Shown: positions 8,411 through 58,727, counted from the first letter of the whole stretch. The stretch: DNA of 62,926 bases, filler included, from Globobulimina sp. (GCA_003354225.1; 15 parts of 15 records of this genome joined end to end with filler, not necessarily neighbours in it); one strand, 5' to 3'. Notes: generated by a model not told the origin, from the sequence alone. A program made the numbers and translations.

Positions 8411-8824
8411 GTGTTACGAGGTATAGGTTTTGTTGGTAGTCGGCAGGATGATTTTTGTGATGTTTCTCGGTTTAATGATGTGACAAGTATCATATTTGAA
8501 GGTTTATTGAACAATAAAATTAAATGGCATTTAGAAAATTGTCATTTTGTGCCACAATCTAATTTTATATATTATAGAAAAGAAAAGATAATGAAACATG
8601 TGATAAGATTTGAAGATTTGGAAAATGAATTTATTGCTTTGTTAGAGTTGTTCGAGGATACAAGAAATATCACCAAGAGTGATTTAACAAATCCATTGTA
8701 TTTAAGAGAAAGACATCCGAGTAACTGTTTAAATTTGGTCGTGGATGATATCAATGCAACCAATAAACAACTGATAAGGCAATATTATGTGGATGATTTT
8801 GAACACTTTTATCCAGCATTGTAA
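8411..8824 (+). CDS. Sulfotransferase family (Sulfotransfer_2-like), C-terminal part
   Basis: HFVPQ, IRFEDLENEF and IRQYYVDDFEHF motifs. Confidence 0.65.
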   Translation: MLRGIGFVGSRQDDFCDVSRFNDVTSIIFEGLLNNKIKWHLENCHFVPQSNFIYYRKEKIMKHVIRFEDLENEFIALLELFEDTRNITKSDLTNPLYLRERHPSNCLNLVVDDINATNKQLIRQYYVDDFEHFYPAL

Positions 8825-9089: not shown

Positions 9090-9255
9090 CAGTGATAAAC
9101 TTTTTGAGTTCTAGTTTTTTTCACATTTGTGGAAAACTACTTTACTTTAAATTTAACTCCTGACGAAGACAGCATTTGTCGAAACGTCGAACTATATACC
9201 CTTGTTTGAAAATAACCCTTTCTAGAAACAAACACCTCTACAAAACCCTTAACAT
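9090..9255 (+). mobile_element. Solo Penelope-like element repeat (pLTR) remnant
   Basis: Aligns by eye with 45360-45510, including an identical CCTGACGAAGACAGCATTTGTCGAAACGTCGAACT core. Confidence 0.7.
9157..9192 (+). ncRNA. Minimal type I hammerhead ribozyme motif (copy 1)
   Basis: CTGACGA (9160-9166), stem II GACA/TGTC, GAAA, palindromic ACGT stem III, GUC cleavage triplet; stem I only 2 bp. Confidence 0.7.
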
Positions 9256-9449
9256 TAACCGGTGTAATTAAATTCTCTTCCATTATTCGATAAAGTTAAA
9301 AGTTTTCTACATTTCGACAAAACTACGAGAGTGAAAAAAAAATCACTATATATTTCATAATTATTTAACAAAAAACAAAAACTAAAACATTGATAATCGC
9401 AAATCTTATTCATCATACAGAATAATCAATAATTTCAGTTACAATATAT

Positions 9450-21022: not shown

Positions 21023-21240
21023 TCCACAGTGACAGTCCGGTGTCCTGACTCTGAGCGTGTCATCATATTCATAACTTCAAGCTATGCGAGTCGGAGTATG
21101 TTAGGCCGACAGTTACAGACTGCGGTCAGACTACGTCTACACTACAGTATGTGCCGGTGCGACCAGTCCGCAAGTCGTAGCGGTAGTGCCTCGCCCAGCT
21201 ATTAGAGGCGGTCGCAATTCGTGATTGTCGCTGGAGGGGT
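21023..21240 (-). mobile_element. Putative insertion-sequence end with structured non-coding RNA (IS110-like?), interrupting the DUF499 gene
   Basis: The DUF499 frame (LEPGRQFKAGTFDSNLSFIQALTEA) is cut by an in-frame TAG at 21240-21242; upstream DNA is non-coding and folds on the minus strand with G-U pairs; the contig breaks inside it. Confidence 0.45.
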
Positions 21241-21242
21241 AG

Positions 21243-23435
21243 CTGGAGCCCGGGCGGCAGTTTAAAGCAGGGACCTTTGACAGCAATTTGAGCTTTATCC
21301 AGGCCCTGACAGAAGCCATGAAACTGGTACCTGATGCTATGTTGTTGGCCTCATTACCTGAATCCGAGTTAGAGGTCGGAGGAACAATGGGACTGCGCAC
21401 TCTAAATTCACTGGAAAAATACTTTGCCAGGGTTGAATCGGTTTGGAAGCCAGTTGCAAGTAGGGAGGCATTTGAAATAGTTCGGCGCCGGCTGTTTGAA
21501 TATGCCGGTGATTCATCTGAGGTAAAAACAATATCCCGCCAATTTTTCGATTATTATCGGGCCAACAGCGAAAAATTCCCCGTTGAAACCCAGTCTAATG
21601 ATTATTATGAACGTTTGTGTCAGTCTTATCCCATTCACCCGGAAATATTTGACCGCCTCTACGAGGACTGGTCGACTTTGGATAAATTCCAGCGTACCAG
21701 GGGCGTGCTACAATATATGGCCATTGTGATTCATCGCCTCTGGAATTCAGATAACCGGGATGGATTGATCATGCCCGGTTCTATTGACCTGGATGATAGC
21801 AACGTTAGAAACAAGAGTATCCATTACTTGCCCCCGGGTTGGGAGCCAGTGATCGAAAAAGAGGTGGATGGCCCCCGCTCAGAACCGACCAGTATTGATG
21901 GGCACGATACACGATTTGGTGGTGTTCAGGCTGCCCACCGTGCCATGCGTACAATTTTTCTGGGCAGCGCACCGGTGTCCACAACTCAAATGGTTAAAGG
22001 ACTCTTGGTCGAACGGATACTATTAGGCTGCGCCCAACCAGAACAGGCAGTAGGGGTGTTCGAGGACGTCTTGAAAAGACTGCGGGACAGGCTACAATAC
22101 CTGTATTCCGATGATGATAGATTCTGGTTGGACACCAAGCCGAATTTGCGCCGGGAAATGGAAAGTAGAAAAAAGCAAATCGATACACAGCATCAATTGA
22201 TACCAATGATTAAGGAACGGGTTCGTCAATTGTTTGGTACCAGCCATTGTTTTTCAGGTGTTCATGTGTTCACCCCTTCCGGCGATGTTCCGGATGACTA
22301 TGGCAACGGACCAAGGCTGGTCGTATTACCACCGGATATCCAAGCCGCATATAGCAAGGCTGACCCAAGCCAAGCGACTAATATTGCCGAAAAGATTCTT
22401 CGTCAGCGAGGAGAGCAACCCCGGCAAAAACAGAATCGGTTATTGTTTTGTGCAGTGGATGTTGATGTGCTTAGCAGGCTCAAGGATTATTGTCGGACCT
22501 ATATTGCATGGAAAGAAATATTGTCAGATATAGATGCGGGGAAACTCAATCTGGATATCTTTCAAATCAACCAGGCTAAAAAACATAAGCAGGCATCAGA
22601 AAAGAGCTTACAACAAATATTGAAAGAAGCCTATAAGTGGATCATCTGTCCTGTTGAAGACTTTGTTCAAGGCAAGCCCAAATTGTCATGGGAAGCTGTG
22701 GCTGTATCGACTTTTGCCCAGGATCTTTCCGCAGAAATAAAGAACATACTTAAAGAAGAAGAATGGCTAATCTCAGAGTGGAGCCCGATCCACCTGAGGA
22801 ACCACCTTAGTCAATGGTATTTTAAAGATGGGATTACAGAAGTAAGTGCTCTTAAGGTTTGGCAAGATAGCTGCAACTACCTATACATGCCCCGACTGCT
22901 CAATGATCAAGTTTTCAAAACTGTGATAGATCGGGGACTAGTCAGCAAGGACTTCTTTGGTTTTGCCTCCGGGAAAGAGCAGGATAAATACCTCGGATTT
23001 GCCTTAGGGACAAGCGCTCTTATCACTATAGATGATGCTTCACTATTAATTGAGCGAGAAGCTGCCATAGATTACCTGGAAGAAAATTCACAAGGACCTC
23101 AGGTGCCGTCAACTGGGTCACAGTCATCAGGGACACCCGGACCTGGTGTTTCCCCGACACCCGATCCTGGAGAGCCTGTTCCAACTAGTCAATCATCGCT
23201 GAAAAAGCAGTTTTATGGCACAGTCGATCTTGATCCAGTGAGAGCAACAATGGATTTCTCTGATATTGTAAATGAAGTCGTTCAGCATTTCACAGCTAAA
23301 ATCGATACGGATGTAACTATAAAGGTTGAGGTCGAAGCCAAGTCATCCAGTGGTTTTGATGAGACCCTGCAGCGAACCATCAAAGAAAATTGCAGTGTTT
23401 TAAAATTTAGTAATGCTGAGTTTGAAGGGGATTAG
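21243..23435 (+). CDS. DUF499-family AAA+ ATPase (bacterial, restriction-like/defence associated), N-terminus missing
   Basis: FIQALTEA, LLASLPES..EVGG, EAFEIVRRRLF, YPIHPEIFDRLYEDW..L..FQRTRGVL, C-terminal FYGTV.LDP and R.IKENC..LKF..AEFE. Confidence 0.85.
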   Translation: MEPGRQFKAGTFDSNLSFIQALTEAMKLVPDAMLLASLPESELEVGGTMGLRTLNSLEKYFARVESVWKPVASREAFEIVRRRLFEYAGDSSEVKTISRQFFDYYRANSEKFPVETQSNDYYERLCQSYPIHPEIFDRLYEDWSTLDKFQRTRGVLQYMAIVIHRLWNSDNRDGLIMPGSIDLDDSNVRNKSIHYLPPGWEPVIEKEVDGPRSEPTSIDGHDTRFGGVQAAHRAMRTIFLGSAPVSTTQMVKGLLVERILLGCAQPEQAVGVFEDVLKRLRDRLQYLYSDDDRFWLDTKPNLRREMESRKKQIDTQHQLIPMIKERVRQLFGTSHCFSGVHVFTPSGDVPDDYGNGPRLVVLPPDIQAAYSKADPSQATNIAEKILRQRGEQPRQKQNRLLFCAVDVDVLSRLKDYCRTYIAWKEILSDIDAGKLNLDIFQINQAKKHKQASEKSLQQILKEAYKWIICPVEDFVQGKPKLSWEAVAVSTFAQDLSAEIKNILKEEEWLISEWSPIHLRNHLSQWYFKDGITEVSALKVWQDSCNYLYMPRLLNDQVFKTVIDRGLVSKDFFGFASGKEQDKYLGFALGTSALITIDDASLLIEREAAIDYLEENSQGPQVPSTGSQSSGTPGPGVSPTPDPGEPVPTSQSSLKKQFYGTVDLDPVRATMDFSDIVNEVVQHFTAKIDTDVTIKVEVEAKSSSGFDETLQRTIKENCSVLKFSNAEFEGD

Positions 23436-23543
23436 AAATATTGGTACGGAATCCTAAATCGATTTTAAAAACTCGGTCGATTATTATTCAAATTTCCAAG
23501 ATGTACTGACCGGTTTAATTATTCGTTAGCTTTTAGGAAAAAA

Positions 23544-24266
23544 ATGCGTGTTGAAAATTCAGAAGGTAATGAAATTTTAAATCTCACCGATTGGGCGAAA
23601 CTTTATGATAAGCCTCAGTCATCTCGCCAGTGGAAAGAACACCGAAGTGCTTATTCCGCTGCTGAATTCATTATGAATCGAAATGGTAGTAACGCAATTC
23701 AATCGCGAATAGCTGATACTTTAGGTACAGCAGTAAACTTTCAACGAGCAATTCCTGAATTTGAAGTACGATTTGATGAATTTGGGCGAGGACGGATACA
23801 CGATATAGCTATCTTCGGCTCTACCGATTCCGGAGAAAGCATCTTCGTTGGTGTCGAAGCCAAAGTCGATGAAACGTTTGGTAGTTTAGTACACGATACA
23901 TATTTAACGGCTAAAGCCAAACAAATAGTCGGCGTTTCAACGAAAGCACCAGAACGGATTGAAAAACTCTTGTCACTGCATTTTTCTGAGCCAGGCATGG
24001 CGATGTTCGATGTTAGATATCAATTGTTGTATGCCACTGCAGGAACATTAGCCGCTGAAGCCGATATTTCTATTTTTTACGTTATTGTTTTTAAAACGCC
24101 CCTGTATAATGAATCGATTGGTGCAGAGAATTACAAGGACTACATACAGTTTATGAGCAAAGTAGGCGCTAATCCCTTAACATTTACCAGTAAAGAGGTC
24201 ATTGGATACGAGTTGTTTTTGAAGCAAAAGAAGCTCATATGCTTGCATGAATATTTCGAAGTTTAA
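23544..24266 (+). CDS. DUF6946-like protein, putative PD-(D/E)XK nuclease
   Basis: WK..RSAYSAA, PE.EV.FD, RIHDIA, VEAKVDETFG, RYQLL.ATAG; AGGA RBS-like site upstream. Confidence 0.65.
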   Translation: MRVENSEGNEILNLTDWAKLYDKPQSSRQWKEHRSAYSAAEFIMNRNGSNAIQSRIADTLGTAVNFQRAIPEFEVRFDEFGRGRIHDIAIFGSTDSGESIFVGVEAKVDETFGSLVHDTYLTAKAKQIVGVSTKAPERIEKLLSLHFSEPGMAMFDVRYQLLYATAGTLAAEADISIFYVIVFKTPLYNESIGAENYKDYIQFMSKVGANPLTFTSKEVIGYELFLKQKKLICLHEYFEV

Positions 24267-24369
24267 CGTCGTTATGAACGTGTGATTAATGGGTACACAT
24301 GGAGATCTGACTATTTGGACAGATTGAAATAGATTAATATCGTTCATTATAATTAAAAAAGGACAGTTT

Positions 24370-25125
24370 ATGAAGCCTGTGTTTGTTGATTTTCACATAC
24401 ATACATCTGACAATCCTGAACGCGTAAACGATTCGTATGATATTGGGGTGTTAAATCATGGTGTGAAGACGATAGCAGATGGTTCAGATTGCCTCATTTC
24501 TCTTACTGATCATAATGTCATTAACAAAGAAGCTTACCTTAAAGCAATTGACGTTTTTGACAATGTACTTCTTGGTGCTGAGATACATGTACGAAACTAT
24601 GACGCTGCTCGGCCATATCATTGTCATATTTTGTTCAACTTTGAAAAAATCAATGAAACGATAATTGATGAAGTGAACCTTAAGTTAGATACTTTATATC
24701 CGAGTAAAGAAGTTGCGCATGATGATACAAGTATTCCTAAGTTAGAAGATATAATGAATTGTTTTGATGAGTATGAATTTCTTCTTCTTCCGCACGGAGG
24801 GCAAAATCATTCTACTTTTGATGGGTCTATTCCAGAAGGTGTGCGATTTGACACAACTCTGGAAAGAAGCATTTATTACAACCACTTCGATGGTTTTACC
24901 GCTAGAAACAATAAAAGTTTGGAAAAAACTCACGAATATTTTACCCGTTTGGGGATAAAGGAATTTGTACATTTGGTAACTGCTACAGATAACTATGAAC
25001 CTTTAAAATACCCTCAATGTAAAGCAGGCGGTCAGGCCTCAGAATTTACACCTACCTGGATGTTGGCCCGGCCAACTTTTGATGGGCTTCGTCTGTCATT
25101 ATCTGAGTCTTCCAGGCTGATATAT
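24370..25125 (+). CDS. PHP-domain phosphoesterase, probably the N-terminus of a PHP-ATPase (Ppl/TrlF-like); 3' truncated
   Basis: DFHIHT, LTDHN, GAEIH, HCHILF, PHG, TDNY, linker TWM...PTFDGLRLSL; AAGGA RBS. Confidence 0.75.
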
Positions 25126-25225: not shown

Positions 25226-27700
25226 GAATTAATTAATGAGGCATTCAAAATCTACGATAAAATAAGTGCCACTGCAGATTACCTGGCTATTAATCCATTG
25301 CTGGAGCTTTGTCTAAAATGTAGATATCCTGAAAAAGCATTATCAATTTGGACAGATATTAAAGAGAAAGCTTTGAATAAAGGCACCTATTTATTGTTAA
25401 TTCAATGGTGTGCCAAAACTTTACATATTGATAAGAATAAAAGTAAATGCATAGATATTTTAGAAACAATTCATCCGATTATTATGCATATGAATGATGC
25501 TGATGTTTATAGCAAAACCTGTTTAATAAATGTTTATAGTCAATATTCCAAAAATAGCACAAATAAAATGAGGAAAGCACTGCAAATATTTAATTCCATC
25601 CATAATGATAACAAATCTGTGGTGTGTATTGGTGCAATGCTTAAATGCTGCATCAATTGCAATGATAACGAGATGGCATTGTCAATCTATGACAATAATA
25701 CATTTCAGGCATTGCACGATGATATCAACCATTTGTTGGCCATCACAGCTTGCAAAAATGTAAATAATTTAGCCAAAGGATTGCAAATTATTGAAAGCAT
25801 CAACCAAAAACATAAAAATAAAAAGAATATCAATATCAAACTAGAAAATACATTAATAGATTTTTATCAGCATTTCCAGGATATTAAGAAGGCGGAATCC
25901 ATATTTAATAAGATTTTGGATAGAAATATGAATGTGGTATCAATTGGAGTAATGATGAAAGGATTTGTTAATAATAAGTTGAATCATAAAGCTTTGTCAT
26001 TGTATCATCGGTTCGCGTCTTTTCGTAATGATATTATTCATTTATTGGCAATCAAAGCTGCTGTAAATATAAATGATTTTGAAGCAGGCAAAGCAATCAT
26101 TGATAATAATAAATTAAATGATGGCAAAAACCATATGATTGAACTGGAAAATACAATGATTCATTTTTATGGACATTTTGGAGATTTAGGTTCAGCACTA
26201 AACACATTTAATAAACTTGATGCAAAGAAGAATTTGAATGAGGTGGTGATTAATTGTATGATGCAAGCTTTTATCCACAATCATAAATATGAGCGAGCAT
26301 TGTTATTATATGGTAAATATAAGACATTTCACAATGATATCTCACATGTATTGGCCATTAAATGTTGCATAAATTCCCAAAAGTTTGAAGAAGGCCAATC
26401 AATCATCGCACAGCTGCAATATAAGGAGAATTCGAATAAGTTGGTACAAACCGCATTGATTGACTTTTATGGCCACTTCAATGATTTACAGAGTGCAAAG
26501 AATATATTCAATTTGCTCTCAGATTCCAAGAAAGACACAGTATGCATTGGTGCAATGATGAAGTGTCTGATAAATAATAATTGCAATCAAGAAGCTCTAT
26601 TTTTATATAATAAATCCAACACATTGCATGACATTGCCTCACATGTATTAGCTCTCAAAAGTTGCATAAATATGAAAGAATTTGTTGTCGGTCAAAATAT
26701 TATTGAAACAAATGGATTGTTGAATGTTAAAAATATTCAGTTGTCCAATAGTTTGATTTCATTTTATGGCGAATGTAATGATATTTTAAGAGCAGAAAAT
26801 ATATTTAGCCAAATACCAGACAGTGATAAAGATGTTATTGCGATGAATGCAATGATGAACGCCTATTTTGACAGCAAATTGTATATAAAATGTATTGAGT
26901 TGTTTAAAAGATTAGAAAATGATTATAATTTGGTTTCAGATAATATAACATATGCAATTGCATTAAAAAGTTGTGCTCAATCAACTTCACTCCATTTTGG
27001 TGAGGAAATTCATGAAAAAATCAAGAAATCATTTGAAATGGAAAAAGATTTGTCAGTTCAAATAAATTTGATAAATATGTATGGGAAATGTGCCCAAATG
27101 GATAAATGTGAAGAGATATTTGCAACGATTAAAAGGAGAGAATATGAGAATAAATATTGCAAAGAAATTAGTTTATGGAATGTTATGATTCATAGTTATT
27201 CGAGGAATGGTGCCACAGATAAAGTGTTTGAAATATTTAATTTAATGAAGTCTGAGATTGGTTTGGTGCCAGATCGTAAAACATATATATTATTAATTAA
27301 TTGTTGCAGTTATTGTGGCAATGTGCTGCAAGCAATACATTTATGGCAATATGATGTAATGGATGAGAATATAAAATATGATGAATATGTCGTCTCCACA
27401 ATGATTGACTGTTTAGCAAGAAATGGCGATGTAGAAAATGCATACAAACTTATGATTGAATATGAGAATATTTCACATAATAAAAGTAATGAAATCCATT
27501 GGATGGCACTGATGAATGGTTGTAGAGTTTGTAAAAATAAAGACATGGCACAAATATGTTACAATGAAATTGTTGAGAGATTTCCGACCAATACAGATTA
27601 TACAACATCAGCATCGGTTTTATTGGCTAATATACATGCTTTGTGTCATGAGGATAACGAGTTACTGCAGTCACAAAAAGCAATATTGAGAAAGCACTGA
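25226..27700 (+). CDS. Pentatricopeptide repeat protein with plant PLS-like repeats and an E-like C-terminus; 5' partial
   Basis: Repeated NTLIDFY.HF.D...A..IFN, V..GAMMK, NLINMYGKC, WNVMIHSYSRNG, MIDCLARNG, WMALMNGCR, SVLLANIH. Confidence 0.88.
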   Translation, partial: ELINEAFKIYDKISATADYLAINPLLELCLKCRYPEKALSIWTDIKEKALNKGTYLLLIQWCAKTLHIDKNKSKCIDILETIHPIIMHMNDADVYSKTCLINVYSQYSKNSTNKMRKALQIFNSIHNDNKSVVCIGAMLKCCINCNDNEMALSIYDNNTFQALHDDINHLLAITACKNVNNLAKGLQIIESINQKHKNKKNINIKLENTLIDFYQHFQDIKKAESIFNKILDRNMNVVSIGVMMKGFVNNKLNHKALSLYHRFASFRNDIIHLLAIKAAVNINDFEAGKAIIDNNKLNDGKNHMIELENTMIHFYGHFGDLGSALNTFNKLDAKKNLNEVVINCMMQAFIHNHKYERALLLYGKYKTFHNDISHVLAIKCCINSQKFEEGQSIIAQLQYKENSNKLVQTALIDFYGHFNDLQSAKNIFNLLSDSKKDTVCIGAMMKCLINNNCNQEALFLYNKSNTLHDIASHVLALKSCINMKEFVVGQNIIETNGLLNVKNIQLSNSLISFYGECNDILRAENIFSQIPDSDKDVIAMNAMMNAYFDSKLYIKCIELFKRLENDYNLVSDNITYAIALKSCAQSTSLHFGEEIHEKIKKSFEMEKDLSVQINLINMYGKCAQMDKCEEIFATIKRREYENKYCKEISLWNVMIHSYSRNGATDKVFEIFNLMKSEIGLVPDRKTYILLINCCSYCGNVLQAIHLWQYDVMDENIKYDEYVVSTMIDCLARNGDVENAYKLMIEYENISHNKSNEIHWMALMNGCRVCKNKDMAQICYNEIVERFPTNTDYTTSASVLLANIHALCHEDNELLQSQKAILRKH

Positions 27701-27865: not shown

Positions 27866-29326
27866 TAGTGTCTGAAACGGCCGGGAACATGCACTTTCAT
27901 AACTTCACCAGGCCAAATCACTATTCTCGCAGTAAGCAAAATATTTTCAGCAAACCACTATTCTCGCATAGTTTTAGCAAAATATGCTGTCAAATAACAT
28001 TATATGTTATTTGACACTCAAAAAACACATAAAAGTTCCTTTTTGTGTGCGGTGCTGTGAGCCCACAGGCTGAGGCCTTTTTTTGTTGGAGCTGTGGGCC
28101 TAGCCTTTAACCAGTTCGTAATATGTTGCATCGGTATGTCTTTAGCCTTTTCGCGAATAATTTTAGCTAATTTTTTGACGGTTAAGCAACCTCGTTCTTT
28201 GTCATCCATTCTCGCCAAAACCAAAGCGACTTGATATTTTAACCACCCAATGGCATATTCTGGCACACAGTTAAAGTCTGGTGAATATGGCGGAAATCCC
28301 AAGTGAAAATTGTAAAAACCACCAGGTGGGTAAATATTTATTCCTACTTCTTTGAAATGTGCTTGTGTTGCATTGGCAGTCCAATATTTTGCGTTATCGT
28401 GAAAATGCAAAATTTTTTTCCAATATTTTTTTGGAGTTGCATATCTCTTCCAGTCAAACCAACACTCTATCATGCCTGTACATAAATTTATACAGTTTTG
28501 AGTATTCATTGTGAACGAGGCTGGAGTTTCTGGTTCATCTGTTTTTGGGCGGCGCTTTTTATATTTTACATGCCAGTCTCGTTTCGTAAATTCTGTATCC
28601 GCATCTGGCGGTTCGACAGACCAGTCCAAAAAATCTTCGTCTTTACGCTCTATTCCTTCTTCGTCTGCGTCTGCGTAGGTGACAGAGCGAAGACCTTGGG
28701 ATTTCTGTTCTTCGTAGTCATCATTTTCGAAGGTTATGACCTTGACATATTCTCCATGAGGGTCGATCACAATACCTCTGGAATTTCAGCTTGTTTGCTT
28801 TCTGTCGTGCAATAATACATTTTACCTCTCAATAAATTATAACCTTCGTTGACGTCCATATAAAACTCATCACTGAAACTACAATATTTCCACTCTCTCT
28901 TGATGTTAGCTTCTGCATATTGCAGCCTCGTTATCTCAGCTGCTGTATGTAGAATTCTTGGCACACGTCTATATGAATAATGATGGAACGTCTCACCAAC
29001 GATATTTTGATCTTGTAACCACCGAAAGATATTACTCTTGTTATTTTCTACAAAATGCCGTTAAACTAGTCTTGTTACTTTGGTCGTTGTTTTCAGTTAC
29101 GTAACGCTTTACAATGTTTTTACGTGATACCTTTTTAGACAACTGCGTTATCTAAGATTTGTATGATGTGTCGTATCTCAGACTTCTCAAACTTACCCCT
29201 TATTTCAGAATTATAAGTTTTAAAAGTTAGATCGTACATATCTTTCTCAGTATCGCCTTTAGCCTCTTTTTTACCTAAGTAATCAATTTTTAGATCAAAT
29301 TTCATAATTTGTATATATATGTGTTC
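27866..29326 (-). mobile_element. Degenerate Tc1/IS630-like DNA transposon (DD45E transposase, frameshifted)
   Basis: RLQYA...WKYCSFSDE, FHDNA, FPPYSPDFNCVPE..IGWLK; frameshifts near 28770 and 29045; TA-TAGTG putative end at 27864 with subterminal CACTATTCTCGCA direct repeats. Confidence 0.7.
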
Positions 29327-41928: not shown

Positions 41929-42028
41929 NNNNNNNNNNNNNNNNNNNNNNNNNNNNNNNNNNNNNNNNNNNNTTAATTAATTAANNNNNNNNNNNNNNNN
42001 NNNNNNNNNNNNNNNNNNNNNNNNNNNN

Positions 42029-43085
42029 CGGTTTATTCATAAATACCATCCTTTATTAGAAGGATTGTTTAATAATATTTTACGAAAGCACTGGAATAAG
42101 CATATCGCCGGCGATGCTGTTCTAACAACACTGTTCCCATTGCATTTCTTCTCCGAAACTTGGCAGCGAGCGGGCCCCAATCTTAAAGAGCGCCTGACAC
42201 CGAATAGATTCTACGACTCCAATCACCAATTAGCGATCGCACGAGATTTGATTGACCATTGCTTCAAACTCTCGTTGATAGGACTACTCCAACCGCATCA
42301 AACTCTCGTTGATTGACCATTGCTCATTGAATTGTAAACAGTTTATTATGGATATGCGCATCAATGAAGATAAATTTGTTACAATCGATGGTAAATTATG
42401 CAAAAAAGACTTATTAACAGCATGGAAAGGATTTGTTCCTTGCTCAGAATTGAAGAAACTTGGAATTGTGTGCAATGTAACTAAGAAATGTCTATGTAAT
42501 TCAACTTCATTATATTCCCAAACGAAAACGTGGAACTGCAGGAATACGAATGAATTGTTCAAAGTCAGCCAAAAGTTGTCATGTTTCTCCCGCAATGTAA
42601 TATATGTAATATATTGTGATCGATGCAGTGATTTTTATGTTGGTAAAAGTGGAGCTGGCGTCAATGGAACTCGTTGCTTACGTGACAGAAACAATGAACA
42701 TTCTAAGAATTTATTGAATGTATACAAAGATCTGCAGTCCCGGTCCTTTTATGACAGCAACGGTCTCATCCAACAACACAATTCATTAGTACTTAGGGAG
42801 ATTATTGCGACCATAATGAAGCAAAGCTATACCCGCGAAATTCTACACTTTACAGGATTGGATGGTTCCCGTTGTCATGAATTTAATGATGGCGATCCGT
42901 TAAAGTTCTATCGTATATTCGCACTGCGGCAATTTAATGAAATCACAAGATCTCAATGCGAGGCCAAGCTATGTGAATTTGAAAAATACTATCAAGGACA
43001 AATGGGTTCAATCATCAAAGGATTAAATGGGATGACTGATTATAAGAAGATTGATACATTTACATCGGACTTTGTTGAATTATGA
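42029..43085 (+). pseudogene. PLE RT C-terminus + GIY-YIG endonuclease, frameshifted by a 61-bp insertion
   Basis: FIHKYHP...ILRKHW...LFP....R..PNLKERL (thumb); CNVTKKCLC; LSC.SRNVIYVIYCDRC..FYVGKS...LRDRNNEH...HF...EKYYQ....KGLN. Confidence 0.8.
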
Positions 43086-43147
43086 TACATTTACATCGGA
43101 CATAGATTGATACATTTACATCGGAATTATAAGAAGTAAATCAAAGT

Positions 43148-44765
43148 ATGATTGACGATGAAACAGCAGCTTTGTTGAATTATGACAGGAATCTGAAGCA
43201 TCTGCAGTGCTTTCTTACGTTTAACAAGATATCCATTAATACATTATTTGATATTCCAGTACCTGAATTAGATGATTTGCGCTTTGATCCTGTCCAAGAT
43301 CTGACACTTTATAATCAAGAAAATAATATTGCCAATATTTCTGCCTTGAATTTATCCATCGATACCGTTCGACCTTACCTCTGCTGTTTTGGATCCGTTT
43401 GACATTGACAATGCCTCATTACATACCAACGAATCATTCGCGTTTATTACCGATGATTTTACGTCGCAAAATATTGATAATGACGTTATTAATATTCAGA
43501 ATCAGTTAATTCAACAATGCCAGGGATCCTCACGTATTGGTAACAACACATCGTTGCATAGTACGGGGTACGATGCATTCATTGCACGTAATACGTATGT
43601 ACAGAATTTGTGGTTAGATATGGTTCAACGGAATGAAATACCACAAGAAAGTATCCCCGTTTATGACCAAAATCTACGCGACATTGTTCCTGAATTGACC
43701 AATTCTGTTTGCTTTGACACCATACCAAGATCGCAGAGAGAGGATTTCACATCTTTCAAAAACAATATTTTAGGCATTGCTAATAAGAATGATATCATAT
43801 TCGATATATTAGACGATGCAAATCAACACAATGCGAACAGTGACATCTTGCGGACTCGCATCAATGATCAACTATTACCGCTTCATTTGTCGCCAATCGT
43901 TTCACCGAAAACAACCAAGAAACATGAATTGATGGACCAATTTTTATGCCATGATAATCCTCGATTCACCGACCTCTGTTATAATGCATTAAACGTCCAT
44001 TCCGACGATAATATGCCATCTGACGATCATTTATCATTACTTTCGCACCGTATTGCAGCTCCAACACTATCTCCAACAATTTCCCACTTAGCGCCTATCC
44101 ATATTCCATCACCAAAATCCAATTTAGCAGTATTGAAGCAACGTACACTGGGCAATACCGCTTTGACTCAGCGACCCATTAAATTTGTCCCAGCTTCACA
44201 CCGTTTGGGCGATTACCAAGTCACATTGAATAAATTTGGCGGAAAAACAGCTATTTGCAATCAGAACCGGTTGAATCCGGCTTTGAGTACGTTGCAAAAT
44301 CAATTCATTTCTTCAATATTAGCAGTGCAACGCCCGGCGCTTACTCCCATTGCTCATATTGACAAAACTATCAAACCACCACAGTTTCACATTGACCCTT
44401 CATTATTATCACAGGAATCTCGTTCGAACGCGCCACTTATTCTTAATCAACGCTGCTGGAAAGGCAATCTTTTGCAGTCGCAACTTACTCATTTGCCTAT
44501 TCAAGGAATGCAGCACCAACCATCCACTATTAACCCCTCTCAACTCGCCGAATTCGATCGGTTTCAACAGGATATTTTGATCGATCATCATTCAGAAATT
44601 ACGCAGCTCGATTCGGCGAAGACAAAGAAACAAATCGCATTCACAGCATTCAAAGATAAGTGGTTGTTACATGGCGATACGCAAATTGCTGAAAGTATGT
44701 TTGCAGCAATGTATGATTCTGGCTCTGATATTAATGTTTTAGAAGAGAAAGATTCAGAACAATAA
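43148..44765 (+). CDS. Unknown ORF inside the PLE unit (84 aa + 458 aa, one frameshift near 43390)
   Basis: Long intronless ORF co-oriented with the endonuclease; no recognisable motif. Confidence 0.55.
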
Positions 44766-45425
44766 GATTCAGATTATTTTATCATTTTTATATGTTCGAT
44801 TATTAGACTATGATTATTATGTACGTACCCTTATCCATTGTCTTATTATATTATTTTTACATTAATAATGTCTTCATGCCTTCCATTACCTGTTATCTTT
44901 TTAGGAAATATATCTGATACAATCCACTTATTTTATTTTGTTTCCAAGTTGATTGATTGTCATTTATCTCATTTTTATTTTTATCAATTTTATTTTATCC
45001 ATCGAGAGCACTCCGTCCTGTTTATTAATATCTGATTATTGTTTATTTATCGATAATGATTTATATGATAAATTATACAAATTGGATTGCTCTCTTTGAT
45101 TGGTTGGCTATAATTGTTTTATTTCCACATTATTTTAGTTATCATTTTATGTGTTCTTGGGTTGTTTTATAATATATTTTGTTTTTTGCAGATCATTTGT
45201 ATTGATGTTCATCATTTATTTCTTCCATTTTTACTTTTTTCCTGATATCATTTCATTTGTATTTGTTCTTACTTTGATTTTGACCCATTTCCATATATAT
45301 ATAGATAATATCTCTCCATTTTACTTTTGTACATCTTTATTATTATTTTGTCATTTCTTTCATAGTGATATTGATTTTTGTTTTGGTTTTTCTATTCTTA
45401 GTAAACCACTTAACTTAAATTTAAC

Positions 45426-45460
45426 TTCCTGACGAAGACAGCATTTGTCGAAACGTCGAA
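45426..45460 (+). ncRNA. Minimal type I hammerhead ribozyme motif (copy 2)
   Basis: TTC-CTGACGA-A-GACA-GCATT-TGTC-GAAA-CGTC-GAA: both conserved boxes, stem II, ACGT palindrome, 3-bp stem I. Confidence 0.75.
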
Positions 45461-45619
45461 CTCTTACACTTGTTTAAAATAACCTTTTCTAGAAACAAAC
45501 ACCACAAAACAATCATATATATTAATCTACGCCACCAATATACTTCACCACTATCTGTTTTGATAACATTTAACAGTGAATTTGGTAGCACTATTTAGAT
45601 TTGGTTAACCTGCGGAATC

Positions 45620-46128
45620 ATGAAGCGTAACATTAAAACTAATACCATGAAGATTTTTCATCATGCATTAGCAAATTGTAGGTCTCGCGACCATTGTTAT
45701 TATTCGTGGAGGAACCTTCCCCACCGCATTAATTTATCGCCTTCGCTTATTAATTATTCGAAAGCAAAGCTATGTAGAAATCGATTCAGTATCAAGTCTA
45801 TATTTGAATTTTATAAACCTCTATCAATCCCATCGAACATATTCCTGATTTATCGTAAATATCGATTTTGCTGCAAAAAAATCCTGCAGTATTCACATCA
45901 CATTAATAATTTATATTTATTTAAGAAACAATATTTAGATATTTTCCAACTCCGGAAACGATGCAAACCGGTCCTGATTCACAGTAATCGGTTAAAAAGG
46001 AAATTCTATTTTATTTTATGTGACGCAACAAAGAAATTAACAAAAGCTACGTCGAAAGAATTAGTTTACGCAGTCAACGTTTATTCACGATTAGCAGACC
46101 TATATTGGAATCATTTGCAGCTCGCCCG
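45620..46128 (+). CDS. Probable N-terminus of the next PLE RT ORF (basic), 3' truncated
   Basis: Starts about 160 nt after the hammerhead; K/R-rich; KKI...SHH..L resembles PLE N-terminal regions. Confidence 0.5.
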
Positions 46129-46365
46129 NNNNNNNNNNNNNNNNNNNNNNNNNNNNNNNNNNNNNNNNNNNNTTAATTAATTAANNNNNNNNNNNNNNNN
46201 NNNNNNNNNNNNNNNNNNNNNNNNNNNNAGAGCAAAGGGTTTTTTTAAAATAATATCAAAGCTCATACAATATTAATGTGGTAAAGGAATTTCAATTTGA
46301 ACTCATTATTAATTTGTATTAATTAGCAGCAGTATTGAAGGCATTTGAAGCTCAGAATATCATTC

Positions 46366-54628: not shown

Positions 54629-54894
54629 TTTGTAGCACATTAAGTTTTTAATTGAGTTGAAAACCTTGATATCGTTGCTGAACGAATGAAATGGCACTGA
54701 ATTAGTGACTTTACTTTCTTTTCACTTAAATGCACTAACTCTAATGCAAATTTATATAAAATATAAAGAACATACATCGAATGTATCTCTGCTGTCAATT
54801 TTTGAACGAGATCAGATTTCAGCCCATGTGATGATAGCCATTGTTTAAATTCATTTTCTCCATCACCATTATCAGTGCCTTCTAACTGTGCCAT
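54629..54894 (-). CDS. SAM-like domain protein N-terminus, 3' truncated
   Basis: EFKQWL..HGL...LVQKL followed by a GTATGT donor-like site. Confidence 0.4.
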
Positions 54895-54931
54895 GCAATT
54901 AATATCGCAGAAAACTTTAAATATACTAAAA

Positions 54932-55606
54932 ATGTCACTTATGTCAGAACAAAGTGACAGTCCGCAAACTGCTTTGATTCCGACAAGAGAATCACCCGAA
55001 GATTTTGATATGAATGATATCAAAGTTAAATTGAGAAACTTTTTCGAAAGCAACTTATTTCACGCACTTTTGGCTATATTAATTGTAGTGGATTTAAGCA
55101 TCGTTTTATTGGAAATTGCGTTGCTTTTGCTTTTTTGCGATGATATACCACATAATATTCATGTTGCAACCAAAGATTTAGTATATATATCAATTAGTAT
55201 TTTAGGTTTATTTTTGGTTGAACTGTCTCTTCAAATCTATGCGTATGGAGCAAAAAAATGGTGTTGTCGTTGTTTACACGTTTTTGATTTTGTTATCGTA
55301 CTCACTACATTTATTTTGGAAATAGTGTTTGTAACTGTCGCAGAGGAAAAAGTAGAATCCCTCGTTGGTTTATTAATTGTATTTAGATTATGGAGAGTGG
55401 TGCGAGTCATCCATGTTACAACAGAAGCGTTGGAAAATAGGGTAGAAATTCAAATGCTTCGCTTAGAAAAAGAAATCGAAGATTTAAAGGAAACATTGAA
55501 ACAAATCCCAGCGTTGAAAGCAAGACTGAGCAGATATGAATCTGTAAATGATGAGATGGCTGGGGATGAGCCCAGTATTCAGTTAGCAAATCCAACCCAA
55601 AAATGA
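54932..55606 (+). CDS. HVCN1: Voltage-gated proton channel Hv1
   Basis: Four TM helices; S1 Asp (LIVVD), F..E in S2, FD..IV in S3, S4 RLWRVVR, C-terminal coiled coil, no pore or phosphatase domain. Confidence 0.88.
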   Translation: MSLMSEQSDSPQTALIPTRESPEDFDMNDIKVKLRNFFESNLFHALLAILIVVDLSIVLLEIALLLLFCDDIPHNIHVATKDLVYISISILGLFLVELSLQIYAYGAKKWCCRCLHVFDFVIVLTTFILEIVFVTVAEEKVESLVGLLIVFRLWRVVRVIHVTTEALENRVEIQMLRLEKEIEDLKETLKQIPALKARLSRYESVNDEMAGDEPSIQLANPTQK

Positions 55607-55802
55607 AAAACGATAATTTATGTTAATTATATAGTAGACAATAAATTCATTTATGTGCTCTGATCTAAATCCCGTACTAACAGCCAACAGTTTTGAGAGT
55701 AGAAGTCAGTCACTGTCAATGGCTACAAAAAGACTGAAAAGTAAGCCATCTCAAAAGGAAGAATATCTTGTAGTATATTTTACAAATTATTAAAAAAAAA
55801 AT

Positions 55803-56064
55803 GAGGCTGGGCAATCTGATTAGTTACCACGTAACTATTTAGTAACTATTTAGTGACTATTTCATTCCAAAAACGAAAATGCAACTAATTAGTTACTATT
55901 TAGAAACTATTTAGTAATTATTTCAAAACAAAAACGATAATGCGTAACTATTTAGTAACTATTTAGCAAGTATGCTATTCAGCAACGATTTAGCAACTAT
56001 TTAGTTACTATTTTAGAAACTATTTTAGAAACTATTTTAGAAACTATTTAGATTGCCCAGCCTC
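55803..56064. mobile_element. hAT-like MITE (262 bp)
   Basis: Perfect 15-bp TIRs GAGGCTGGGCAATCT / AGATTGCCCAGCCTC, 8-bp TSD AAAAAAAT, internal AACTATTTAG repeats. Confidence 0.85.
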
Positions 56065-56097
56065 AAAAAAATTGATTTTACTTTTAAACTAATTATG

Positions 56098-56551
56098 TCA
56101 GTCAGCAGTATAATCAACGGAGTTTCCAATTGATTGCTGTTGTTTTTTACAGGATAAAATAGATAATTCAGAGCTTGATTCATTATTATTTTGTTGTGAA
56201 TAATTATAATTATTATATTTATATTTTTTTGCGTGATACACAAAGAATATCCACGCGAAAATCATAAATAAAAGCAATGGAAAAGAAATACCAATCCAAA
56301 TGTCCATTATTTAAATCCTGAGTAATCCATTCGTTTCCTTTATGAATATTTGCAAATACAATATAAATTCCAGTAATCCACGAACCCAAACCTATGCTCA
56401 TTGTATATGCAGCCGACATGACAGATTTCATAGATTTGGGTGCTTCATTGAAAAAAAATTCGTAACCAGTCAATGATGCTAAAACCTCCGATATTCCATA
56501 CAATACAAAAGCAGGTATTTGCCAAAATAAGAATGACATCGGCAATATGTA
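56098..56551 (-). pseudogene. POT/PTR2 peptide transporter C-terminal fragment with a frameshift
   Basis: WQIP.FVL.GISEV..S.TGYEF..EAP.SMKS and WI..DLN.GHLD.YF; no room for upstream exons before the divergent gene. Confidence 0.7.
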
Positions 56552-56586
56552 ACTCTCAAAAAAAGAAAACTTTTTATTTTCGAACC

Positions 56587-57267
56587 ATGGGCTCCAAATC
56601 CAAATGGAACACCATCCGTGGAGTCGACGACGCCTGGTTCTACACAGGCCTTTACTTCTCGATTGCAACATTCCTGAATCTCCTCGTTTGCTTTCTGGCC
56701 GCGAGAGACACGTACAGACGAGTCAAAACAAAAGCCAGTCCCAATCTCCCAACTTCAAACGAGAAATGGCACCAACTCAAAATCAAAAACAAACAGAATA
56801 TGAAAGGCAGAGCTGTCGAGGATGTGACTCGAGTCATGGAAAAAGCTTGTTCCGATCCGAATTCACCCATGCAATCCTCGACAAACCTGGGCTCTGTGCA
56901 TTTGAAAGCAGGCAATAATACACGAGACGAGTAATCCTATCGCGATAATGATTATAGGAAAATGGGTTGGTTAGTGCAGGCATTGGGTGTGTGTACACTG
57001 TGGACACCGTTCGCGTACTGTCTTGGCAAAGAATGGAATAATGTGACCCTATTTTACGCGGCACGCTTTAGTGAGAATTTATTGATTATGTCCGTGTGTG
57101 TCGCGATGAAAGTCCTGCTTTGGAATGGAGAGGTAAATGAGTGTTTTTGGGCCGCGTTTGCGATGGGCACCCTCTGCAATGGCAATGGTTATATGGTGTT
57201 TGTGTACTTTAACAAAATGGACTCAATCGGTTTCATTTGCTTGTGCAGCTGTGTCATAATCCAGTGA
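56587..57267 (+). CDS. Hypothetical membrane protein, possible 27-nt intron 56931-56957
   Basis: Two same-frame ORFs separated by a GT...AG segment that contains the stops. Confidence 0.45.
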
Positions 57268-57329
57268 TCATAATCCGCCAGAAATAGTGCACATAAATAA
57301 CTAATCAAGACAATCAACAGCTAATTACA

Positions 57330-58727
57330 ATGTCGTTCGGAGCTGCTTCTAAGCAGATGATGGCGCGCTCATTACGATGTGCGAGGATTGGTCACGTCGC
57401 TCGTTCACACCTCTTCCTTCACTCACTCGGCGGCCTCAAACGCGGCACCTGGTGGTCGGAAACTCTTTCAGCTGACGTCCTCGTCTATGATTTTCAGGAT
57501 GGCTGCGAACCAGGAGAAGATGTCCACGTGCTCGAGGCTATCAAGCGTTCGCACGAGGTGTTTACCGGTGCGCTCTGTACCGTGCGACTTTCCGAGCTCA
57601 ATTGCGCCGCCAGCACTCCAAAATTAGTGCAGGAGATTCGCACGGCGGTCAAGCAGCCGCAGGTACGCTGGCTCATGCTTCCGATGTGTGACAACACGGA
57701 GGACGTGACAGCGTATATCGACATTGTGCGCTCGATCGACGAAAGCTGGCTCGCGTCGTACGGTCAGCTGCAGATCATATGCGAGACGCCCTGGTGCCTC
57801 TACAATTTGGATGAAATCCTCGAGCGTCACCCATCGATAGCGGCCGTGCTTGTGGGTAGTGGAGACTTTTCGCGCTTCACTCAGATGAATGTCAAGTCGA
57901 TGAACGCGCATCTTCGATGGGATGTGCTCAACGCATGTCTACGACACCACCGATTCGCGATCGACTCTGCTGCCCTGGCCATCTCCTCAGACTCATCTCA
58001 TTTTGATGAGTCTGCAGCAGCCGGCATGCGCTCATCAGTCGTCCTGCATCCGTCTCAGATTGAGATCTGTCACCAAGCATTCACTCCTTGCCGAGAAGCC
58101 GTCACTCAGTCATTGCCGATGCTCGATGTTTGGCTCAACGACAATCACTCTGGTTACAGACGCGGTACAGGCGACGACTTCATCGGCCCACCACACATGA
58201 AGCAGAAGCTATGGACAGCCACCTACGCGGCACGGATCGAAGCCAAGGCCACCTACAATGTGAATGTGTCACACCACATCGAGCCTCTCGAGTTATTTAT
58301 CAGCTCCACCCCCATGTTGCAGCAGCCGCACCTCTCATTCTTGGCGCTCGGCGTCTCGGCGCATCCGAACCACTCACGCATCATCGTCAACTTGAGCTCC
58401 TCTGGCTGCGAGTTTGTGTACAGAGACAACACCAATCAGCAGACAATGCCGTCAATCTCGGATGCGCGTCTGGTGACCACTCGCGTACTCCATCGCCACT
58501 TGACGAGCAACAATAAGATGGTCGTATCGTACCGCGTGGTCGTGATGGATGCACTGCATCGACCGCAATTCACATTCATCCGCAAGTTGCTCGAAGAACC
58601 GATTCCGCTCGATGACCAAGAGGGTACTTCATGTGCTCTGTTGAGCCAAGATTTGCCACCTCGGCTAACGCTCGAGAATGTATTAGCAAGGACTGGCGCG
58701 TTGGAGGATGAGCACGCCGTCACCGCC
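57330..58727 (+). CDS. CitE/HpcH-HpaI acyl-CoA lyase fused to a MaoC-like hydratase domain, 3' truncated
   Basis: RSHLF, D.LVYDFQDG, VRL, LMLP, ICETP, GSGDFS, IDS, LHPSQI; then ALGVS..IVNL....F...TRVL...V...F.R (hot-dog fold). Confidence 0.7.

Follow-up and report, generated by a model that had tools for sequence, protein, structure and literature searches.

What kind of element occupies positions 42029-46128 of the 62,926-nucleotide (nt) stretch of DNA analyzed here (the window), and in what sort of genome does it reside? An earlier note had read this segment as a Penelope-like element (PLE) with a GIY-YIG endonuclease (EN) and a minimal hammerhead ribozyme (HHR), arranged in tandem in a protist. 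The window consists of 15 unrelated contigs of 4,099-4,105 nt, ordered by size and artificially concatenated with N44-TTAATTAATTAA-N44 linkers. Positions 42029-46128 coincide exactly with contig 11, which is bounded by such linkers at 41929-42028 and 46129-46228, so that the adjoining genes in the window are not its genomic context. Contig 11 probably represents the 3' two-thirds of a decayed PLE copy with a C-terminal EN, from a deeply divergent lineage; it carries a hammerhead motif in its putative pseudo-long terminal repeat (pseudo-LTR), perhaps in a tandem arrangement and probably in a protist host. Throughout, PMC8557442, PMC3846280, PMC4209133 and PMC11167929 are represented by the accessible portions of their text.

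Coding region and lineage

An exhaustive search with the contig 11 protein returned 55 relatives at E ≤ 1e-3, 16 of them at E ≤ 1e-10 and five at E ≤ 1e-30. The best match, P0001, is a 617-residue protein that bears a reverse transcriptase (RT) and served as the reference for identities. In what follows, the PLE family denotes the window sequence together with P0001-P0020, and the others are the remaining matches among the 55 proteins. On the plus strand, 42029-42250 (frame 1, cut by the contig end) encodes the C-terminal, post-core/thumb part of an RT, 70% identical to residues 313-386 of P0001 over 74 amino acids (E 2e-36). Immediately upstream of these residues P0001 carries RT core motifs, namely the B/C-like GxGQG and YRDD and a KKTD...Y...S.H block; the RT core itself lies outside contig 11, which holds the post-core/thumb portion only. 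When profiles were compared with hhalign, 42029-42250 fell on the part of the thumb that reads 'v.T.hP' in canonical PLE proteins.

The reading frame resumes in frame 2 of the same strand with the linker and the GIY-YIG EN (42285-43085), which were delimited by the exhaustive search, the family alignment, hhalign, an AlphaFold model and a table of motif offsets. The segment 42285-42959 is 65% identical to residues 388-612 of P0001. Within the linker lies a CxC motif (42489-42497); the EN contains the GIY..CxxC..YIG core (42597-42647), the HFTGLDG of a family-specific insertion (42846-42866) and a GLN motif (43020-43028), and ends at a stop codon (43083-43085), all on the plus strand. It carries VIYVIYCDRCSDFYVGK...R..R..EH...E...GLN, which hhalign aligned to the GIY-YIG domain of PLE proteins supported by Pfam, with the catalytic R..R..EH, E and GLN in register, as expected of a C-terminal PLE EN. 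Against this Pfam-supported set, the family profile scored 98.8% (E 1.4e-16, 138 columns) for the linker and EN, and 99.7% (E 1e-25, 282 columns) when extended, with late RT motifs, thumb, linker and GIY-YIG collinear. CDRC sits between VIY and YVG, which gives the cysteine pair of the CCHH type (PMC8557442); the first H is that of EH, and the second, at a variable position, is tentatively the invariant HF motif. We conclude that the coding part of contig 11 specifies a PLE-type thumb, linker and GIY-YIG EN. The P0001 matches and both profile comparisons bear out this part of the earlier note, and the thumb, the cysteine-rich linker and the nuclease all lie where it had placed them.

Some results weigh against this assignment. 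Pfam found no family in five open reading frames (ORFs) of the window, even at E ≤ 10, and recognized no RVT_1 or GIY-YIG domain in 8 of 15 relatives that were scanned, among them the six closest (P0001, P0002, P0004, P0006, P0010 and P0020). Foldseek gave no match in the PDB at E ≤ 0.001. A PDB sequence search with the family profile returned chance-level matches to prohibitin and L31 only. Among the same 15 relatives, GIY-YIG was above the cut-off in P0027, P0028, P0036, P0042 and P0046, and RVT_1 passed it in P0048 and fell short of it in P0025 and P0036. The top Foldseek ranks in the PDB were GIY-YIG nucleases, T4 EndoII and I-TevI (E 0.65-5; TM 0.57 normalized to I-TevI), and the AlphaFold model of the 258-residue ORF, built from 17 aligned sequences (pLDDT 79.6), showed a strand-strand-helix...strand-helix order like that of GIY-YIG nucleases.

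The ORF of the element is broken in at least three places. At the first disruption (42251-42284, plus strand), 34 nt stand where the relative has a single residue, a surplus of 31 nt that moves the frame from 1 to 2; by tblastn, residue 386 of P0001 ends at 42250 and residue 388 begins at 42285. The insert is built from local duplicates, with direct repeats D5 and D7 located there. An intron was considered for 42251-42284 and rejected, as inspection by eye revealed no GT...AG. The second disruption (43048-43125, plus strand) is a tandem duplication with a period of 31 and 2.8 copies that spans the stop at 43083, and was recognized by Tandem Repeats Finder and by repeat families D1 and D8. Both disruptions share a duplication length of about 31 nt and are built from adjacent sequence. 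The coding region that follows the EN (43148-44765, plus strand; 1.6 kb, 8% Asn) comprises 84 residues in frame 1 and, after a frameshift near 43390, 458 in frame 2, and stops at 44765. The contig 11 copy is decayed, and so is not itself an active element; being dead, it gives no lesson on activity.

No relatives of the post-EN ORF were found with Pfam, in protein searches or by phmmer against the retrieved proteins, and the best score in the atlas was 0.78, below lead level. We read this region as a decayed C-terminal extension of the element ORF, the alternative being a captured spacer comparable to that of Pen1 in Adineta vaga. All the longer family members extend beyond the nuclease and GLN with sequence that is not conserved. 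In the GC-rich relatives P0010, P0019 and P0020 the nuclease is followed, at the end of the protein, by a ZZ-like cysteine cluster (C..C...C..C...C..C), in place of which the AT-rich members have Asn-rich stretches. That both kinds of member occur indicates that the family spans hosts of very different base composition.

Is the family distinct from known PLEs? Among family members with the core, CxC was found 35 to 41 residues before GIY in 12 of 14, and CxxC between GIY and YIG in all 14. The non-family matches with a core have instead CxxC at about -34 (23 of 27). The HFxGxDG motif was present in 15 of the 21 family sequences and in none of the 35 others, and GLN lay at +121 to +125 (six sequences) or +148 to +167 (three sequences) in the family, as against +68 to +78 in ten of the others. 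Taken together, the offsets and motifs indicate that the family has a CxC linker and an insertion of about 50 residues inside the nuclease. The family linker is conserved as W(K/R)GF..C...CxC. We built a maximum-likelihood tree from 36 linker and EN segments, 20 of the 56 sequences having been dropped because they lacked the core or were too short; all 13 family rows fell on one side of a branch of length 1.19 with 100/100 support. This supports the separateness of the family and does not place it among the named PLE clades.

We then compared the family with the published diagnostics of those clades. In the window sequence and in 10 of the 12 family members with a linker, CxC stands at about -36 and CxxC is missing, which departs from Neptune/Nematis; the earlier note had called the linker Neptune-like, and this part of its proposal fell, as the linker carries CxC and not CX2-5CxxC. 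Penelope/Poseidon linkers are defined by the lack of a cysteine motif, and a cysteine linker is found across the family. The Hydra clade is marked by the absence of the CCHH cysteines and by a CxCX5C linker; in the family the CxxC is present, and the CLCNSTSLY of the window has no cysteine five residues after CxC. Naiad/Chlamys have an N-terminal EN; the EN follows the RT thumb on contig 11 and in P0001, P0006, P0010 and P0020. Judged by these diagnostic residues, as given in the accessible text of PMC8557442, the family matches none of the named EN-bearing (EN+) clades. We found no report of a PLE from Reticulomyxa, foraminifera or Rhizaria in the literature searched, which did not cover Repbase. 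A rhizarian genome paper of 2026, in its accessible part, makes no mention of Penelope or PLE, and two others of the papers returned, as far as their accessible text goes, cite PLE work in passing only. The lineage looks like an undescribed, deeply divergent C-terminal EN+ PLE, in line with the earlier note, which had suspected a new family.

Hammerhead motif and terminal unit

Downstream of the coding region, a T-rich tract of 660 nt (44766-45425, 52% T), close to the approximately 650 nt proposed before, leads into a minimal type-I hammerhead motif at 45426-45460 (plus strand). It reads UUC-CUGACGA-A-GACAGCAUUUGUC-GAAA-CGUC-GAA and contains the full catalytic core: a helix I of 3 bp (45426-45428/45458-45460), CUGACGA (45429-45435), an extra A between A9 and G10.1 (45436), a helix II of 4 bp plus a G.U pair (45437-45449), GAAA (45450-45453), a palindromic ACGU at positions 15.2/16.2 (45453-45456) and C17 (45457), with the predicted cut between 45457 and 45458. 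Four signature features that Cervera and De la Pena name in addition to their descriptor are all there as well: one nucleotide between A9 and G10.1, a G10.1-C11.1 pair, palindromic 15.2/16.2 positions and a short helix I (PMC4209133). A scanner built from the published consensus of minimal hammerheads (PMC4209133) matched the window only at 45426-45460 and, when a helix I of 2 bp was allowed, also at 9158-9190 on contig 3; it matched none of 1000 shuffles of the window that preserved local composition. The features that define the minimal class are thus present at 45426-45460, as the earlier note had recognized, and also in the contig 3 copy, the latter with a helix I of 2 bp. Both copies have kept the 11 invariant core positions, the nucleotide after A9, the G10.1-C11.1 pair and the palindrome.

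The hammerhead belongs to a longer conserved unit. By blastn, 45166-45525 is 69% identical to 8896-9258 on contig 3 over 379 columns (E 3e-43), and the end points from blastn and Smith-Waterman delimit on contig 11 a terminal unit of about 360 nt, like a pseudo-LTR, made up of a T-rich part, the hammerhead and an AC-rich segment. This leaves 44766-45165 (50% T) as a T-rich 3' untranslated spacer; spacer, unit and contig 3 copy are all on the plus strand. A core of about 105 nt (approximately 45405-45510) is about 95% identical between contigs 11 and 3, with 37 identical nt over the ribozyme. The AC-rich segment (GAAACAAACACC...ACAAAAC; 45462-45525 and 9193-9258) directly follows the hammerhead, and the homology of the two copies ends there. 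In an Anolis PLE, an AC-rich stem-loop contains the internal RT start sites at which insertions end (PMC11167929). By analogy, the contig 3 copy may be a 5'-truncated insertion, and about 45525 may be the 3' end of the unit. Folding of the AC-rich segment gave no thermodynamic support to a UUGUUU/AAACAA stem (z +0.45 and -1.09).

On contig 3, two host genes converge on the unit with their 3' ends: an unassigned ORF at 8411-8824 and a PH/TH1-kinase gene. The former, on the plus strand, stops 70 nt before the unit, and could have been carried by the PLE insertion, as described for A. vaga, or be merely adjacent. The latter, on the minus strand of contig 3 (8411-12515), is an unusual gene that joins PH, myosin-TH1 and protein-kinase domains and is split by an intron.

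Does the motif represent a working ribozyme? In sequence terms it is of the minimal type known from PLE pseudo-LTRs, and its conservation between the two contigs is observed. Ribozyme activity may be supposed by analogy with published elements, and a number of results speak against it. A looser hammerhead pattern occurred at chance level (seven matches, 7.4 expected). Rfam gave no match in the window at the gathering threshold, and none of its six contig matches at E ≤ 10 was a hammerhead; this miss is expected of a motif without helix III. The minimum free energy fold of the region is a competing hairpin and is not unusual (z -0.48). With only two copies, whose cores are identical, there is no covariation, and helix I of the contig 3 copy is the weaker, at 2 bp. 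The conserved block is three times the size of the ribozyme, so that its conservation is not ribozyme-specific. Cofolding of the two copies gave a trivial extended duplex and was uninformative. Prokaryote genomes contained no exact match to the 33-nt core. The earlier note had also proposed that the element processes tandem transcripts by self-cleavage, a role that is conjectural here. In the Anolis PLE, hammerhead cleavage was dispensable for insertion in vitro, and no RNA-seq ends coincided with the site (PMC11167929). Published minimal hammerheads cleave weakly in vitro, as dimers (PMC4209133).

These same points lend weight to another explanation: the hammerhead-like sequence may be a conserved cis element, for example for RT recognition or a promoter, whose cleavage was lost or never present in this lineage. 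The wide conserved block, the short helix I, the missing helix III, the competing fold, the negative Rfam result and the weak or dispensable activity of the published examples would all fit. A cis element accounts less well for the retention, in both copies, of the 11 invariant positions together with the extra nucleotide, the G10.1-C11.1 pair and the palindrome, and for a match that never arose in 1000 shuffles. We regard it as a serious possibility, although somewhat short of an even chance, and retain the hammerhead as a putative ribozyme. Lunse et al. (2017) reportedly also found that PLE minimal hammerheads cleave as dimers.

It is also conceivable that the T-rich and hammerhead unit is a separate, non-autonomous element, similar to a retrozyme or a SINE, which inserted beside a PLE that was already dead and, in a separate event, on contig 3. 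All that the two contigs have in common is the unit of about 360 nt, and a 2026 preprint, in its accessible part, derives animal non-LTR retrozymes from PLE pseudo-LTRs. However, neither contig has a tandem array of the unit, on contig 11 the unit follows the PLE 3' untranslated region (UTR) with no detectable boundary, and a 5'-truncated PLE copy accounts for contig 3 equally well. We therefore consider a separate element improbable and treat the unit as part of the PLE.

Downstream ORF, possible tandem arrangement and probable host

Beyond the terminal unit, an ORF on the plus strand (45620-46128) opens with an ATG and runs off the contig after at least 169 codons. It encodes a very basic product (isoelectric point 10.2, 20% Lys plus Arg), and an equally long open frame appeared in none of 20,000 shuffles. 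The earlier note was right in pointing to a new basic ORF at 45620. It is a candidate for the N-terminus of a further PLE copy. PLEs form partial tandems, in which the published layout is the end of an ORF, a UTR, an HHR unit and a new long basic ORF on the same strand (PMC3846280, PMC11167929), and the order found on contig 11 fits that layout; PLE N-termini, moreover, are described as nucleic-acid-binding (PMC11167929). A model from the single sequence with AlphaFold was all-helical, of low confidence (pLDDT 50.8) and uninformative.

Several observations tell against a tandem. The homology with contig 3 stops at 45525, leaving a gap of 95 nt between the end of the unit and the ATG. BLASTP detected no similarity between the basic ORF and the N-terminus of P0010, the one full-length relative; phmmer against 70 retrieved proteins gave a best E of 0.05 and no relative; and a search of longer proteins and of the atlas gave no usable match. 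With tblastn, nothing was found below E 0.08 in the other 14 contigs, and the window contains no second coding copy of the family elsewhere. One terminal unit lies between the end of the first ORF and the new one, and the contig ends ahead of any second unit or RT. The tandem proposed in the earlier note was not borne out in this respect, since the basic ORF has no detectable relative and no link to an RT.

All this could mean that contig 11 holds a single, non-tandem insertion ending at about 45525, with the basic ORF being an unrelated host or orphan gene or part of another element. A missed N-terminal match is, however, expected, because PLE N-termini are poorly conserved and the identity of P0010 is no more than about 27% within the EN itself. 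The strong basicity resembles that of a nucleic-acid-binding N-terminus, and the shared strand, the short spacing and the tendency of PLEs to form partial tandems favor a tandem. On these grounds we think a single insertion rather unlikely, and lean towards reading the basic ORF as the beginning of a second copy, joined head to tail to the first as a partial tandem.

A possible history of the element can be outlined. Originally, a single ORF would have encoded RT, thumb, CxC linker, a GIY-YIG nuclease with CxxC and an insertion of about 50 residues, and a long, non-conserved C-terminal extension. It would have been followed by a T-rich 3' UTR and by the unit of about 360 nt, which may have acted as a pseudo-LTR through its hammerhead and AC-rich segment. 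Going by published work on PLEs, a read-through or multi-copy transcript would be produced, and the RT-EN protein would nick AT-rich DNA and carry out target-primed reverse transcription of its own RNA from near the AC-rich segment. A start at that place would explain why the contig 3 copy ends just after the AC-rich segment. As the hammerhead lacks a helix III of its own, cleavage after C45457 could occur only through pairing of ACGU between two copies or with the help of a protein. On the simplest reading, the basic ORF would encode the nucleic-acid-binding N-terminus of the copy that follows head to tail. In this outline, we infer the tandem arrangement, the ribozyme activity, the RT start site and the host.

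As for the host, one gene, on contig 12, encodes a phosphodiesterase that points to a foraminifer-like protist. At E ≤ 1e-20 it matches 15 proteins, and among those with a name the best belongs to the foraminiferan Reticulomyxa filosa, with 52% identity across 32% of the query; the matches include four EukProt identifiers, one MMETSP transcript and one entry of a marine eukaryote catalogue, and no animal protein occurs among the 15. Contig 11 has a trinucleotide profile that correlates with the pooled other contigs at r 0.965, within the 0.957-0.990 of the majority, contigs 6 and 14 standing apart at 0.902 and 0.925. Most contigs of the window have 32-37% GC, short introns and Asn-rich proteins. 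For the R. filosa assembly, a table in the accessible part of a 2026 paper lists short introns and an N50 of 3.6 kb, so that contigs as short as those of the window are usual in a genome of this kind. A bdelloid rotifer was rejected as host, given that the phosphodiesterase relatives come from protists and include no protein from a rotifer or other animal. Counting against a firm assignment, the evidence on the host consists of one gene on another contig together with base composition, and at least one contig of the window looks bacterial. The host is nevertheless very likely a foraminifer-like rhizarian protist; both the R. filosa relative and the majority signature of contig 11 agree with the protist host of the earlier note.

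Could contig 11 instead be a contaminant from an animal, or the whole assembly that of an animal, so that the element is an ordinary metazoan PLE? A minimal hammerhead without helix III is the form found in animal PLEs, those of protists and fungi that lack an EN having a long helix III (PMC4209133); C-terminal EN+ PLEs were previously known only from animals and one transfer to a conifer (PMC8557442); and the window is a collection of contigs without known placement, one or more of which look bacterial. Yet the di- and trinucleotide signature of contig 11 fits the majority, and the terminal unit recurs on contig 3 between intron-bearing genes of host type with the same signature. The phosphodiesterase, too, points to a foraminiferan and away from animals, and the family is distant from the canonical matches of animal type. 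An animal source therefore has only a slim chance of being correct, and a protist host is retained.

Other contigs of the window were noted in passing. Contig 6 (21023-25125; 43% GC), with its outlying signature, has dense, intron-less ORFs, with DUF499 (21243-23432) and DUF6946 (23469-24263), and looks bacterial-like, whether as a contaminant, a symbiont or transferred DNA. Contig 14 (54629-58727), the second outlier in signature, has 47-51% GC in its second half and an ORF (57297-58727) similar to HpcH/HpaI aldolase/citrate lyase. Contig 7 encodes an 824-residue pentatricopeptide-repeat protein with many repeats (25226-27697), beside which an ORF on the minus strand (28021-28785) has a weak match to the DDE_3 transposase (E 8e-4, below the cut-off).

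Comparison with known elements

The published surveys confine C-terminal EN+ PLEs to animals and one conifer transfer, and scenarios for the acquisition of the EN have been built on that distribution (PMC8557442); a preprint of July 2026, in its accessible part, keeps the same eight PLE clades. We tentatively raise the possibility that the family might be the first representative of a ninth, protist-borne clade with an animal architecture, that is, a C-terminal GIY-YIG of the CCHH type and a minimal hammerhead of the dimer type. If so, the fusion of RT and EN and the minimal hammerhead would be older than animals, or would have moved between animals and Rhizaria, and the nuclease insertion and the C-terminal extensions with ZZ-like clusters may give a different mode of targeting. 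A rhizarian C-terminal EN+ lineage would widen the known distribution and bear on the scenarios of EN acquisition. Since the Pfam RVT_1 and GIY-YIG models and the Rfam hammerhead models miss the lineage, it is probably under-annotated in protist genomes. The significance of the element rests mainly on its status as a taxonomic and structural outlier.

With canonical C-terminal EN+ PLEs (PMC8557442) the family shares the order RT, thumb, linker and GIY-YIG, the two cysteines between GIY and YIG, the alignable R, H, E and N residues, a hammerhead in the terminal repeat and, in its relatives, the late RT block 'KPTD..Y...S.H'. It differs in its C-x16-17-CxC linker, where Neptune/Nematis have CX2-5CxxC and Penelope/Poseidon no motif (PMC8557442), in the nuclease insertion of about 50 residues (GFYD...HFxGLDGSxCY), in the long C-terminal extension, in being missed by Pfam and in its probable protist host. 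The Hydra clade, found in cnidarians and other aquatic invertebrates, resembles the family in its C-terminal EN, a linker containing CxC, sequences that are hard to align and canonical HHRs (PMC8557442). Unlike the family, it lacks the CCHH cysteines in the GIY-YIG domain and has a CxCX5C linker, whereas CxxC is present in all 14 family members with the core.

Pen1-Pen6 of A. vaga are, like the contig 11 element, low in copy number and mostly decayed, and have lineage-specific coding insertions; their pseudo-LTRs measure about 180-220 bp, solo pseudo-LTRs occur beside host genes, and Pen1 has a unique spacer of 0.9-1.5 kb between the ORF and the 3' pseudo-LTR (PMC3846280). In contrast to contig 11, these elements have canonical sequences and an animal host, and their Asn-rich insertions (25-30% Asn) are found ahead of the thumb or separate the RT from the EN (PMC3846280); the extra coding sequence of contig 11 follows the EN and has 8% Asn. 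The Poseidon element PAc of Anolis carolinensis (PMC11167929) has in common with contig 11 an HHR at the junction of pseudo-LTR and ORF and, beyond the HHR, an AC-rich site that marks the end of insertions; its tandem layout and basic N-terminal region correspond to those proposed for contig 11. In PAc, however, HHR and start codon overlap and the ORF itself contains the AC-rich RT start (PMC11167929), whereas on contig 11 the HHR and the AC-rich segment lie about 95-190 nt upstream of the ATG, and folding does not support a stem-loop.

As to the hammerhead, the contig 11 motif differs from the published ones in its probable occurrence in a protist, where PLEs lacking an EN carry monomeric variants with a long helix III (PMC4209133), and in being represented by two copies and not by a consensus family. 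With the minimal hammerheads of metazoan PLEs it shares a U-rich upstream region, a helix I of 3 bp, CUGANGA followed by one nucleotide, the G10.1-C11.1 pair, GAAA, the palindromic 15.2-16.2 positions, UH and an AU-rich downstream region (PMC4209133). Its architecture is that of the Nematostella (2) example and of the >80% consensus in the supplement of that survey, as far as the accessible text shows (PMC4209133).

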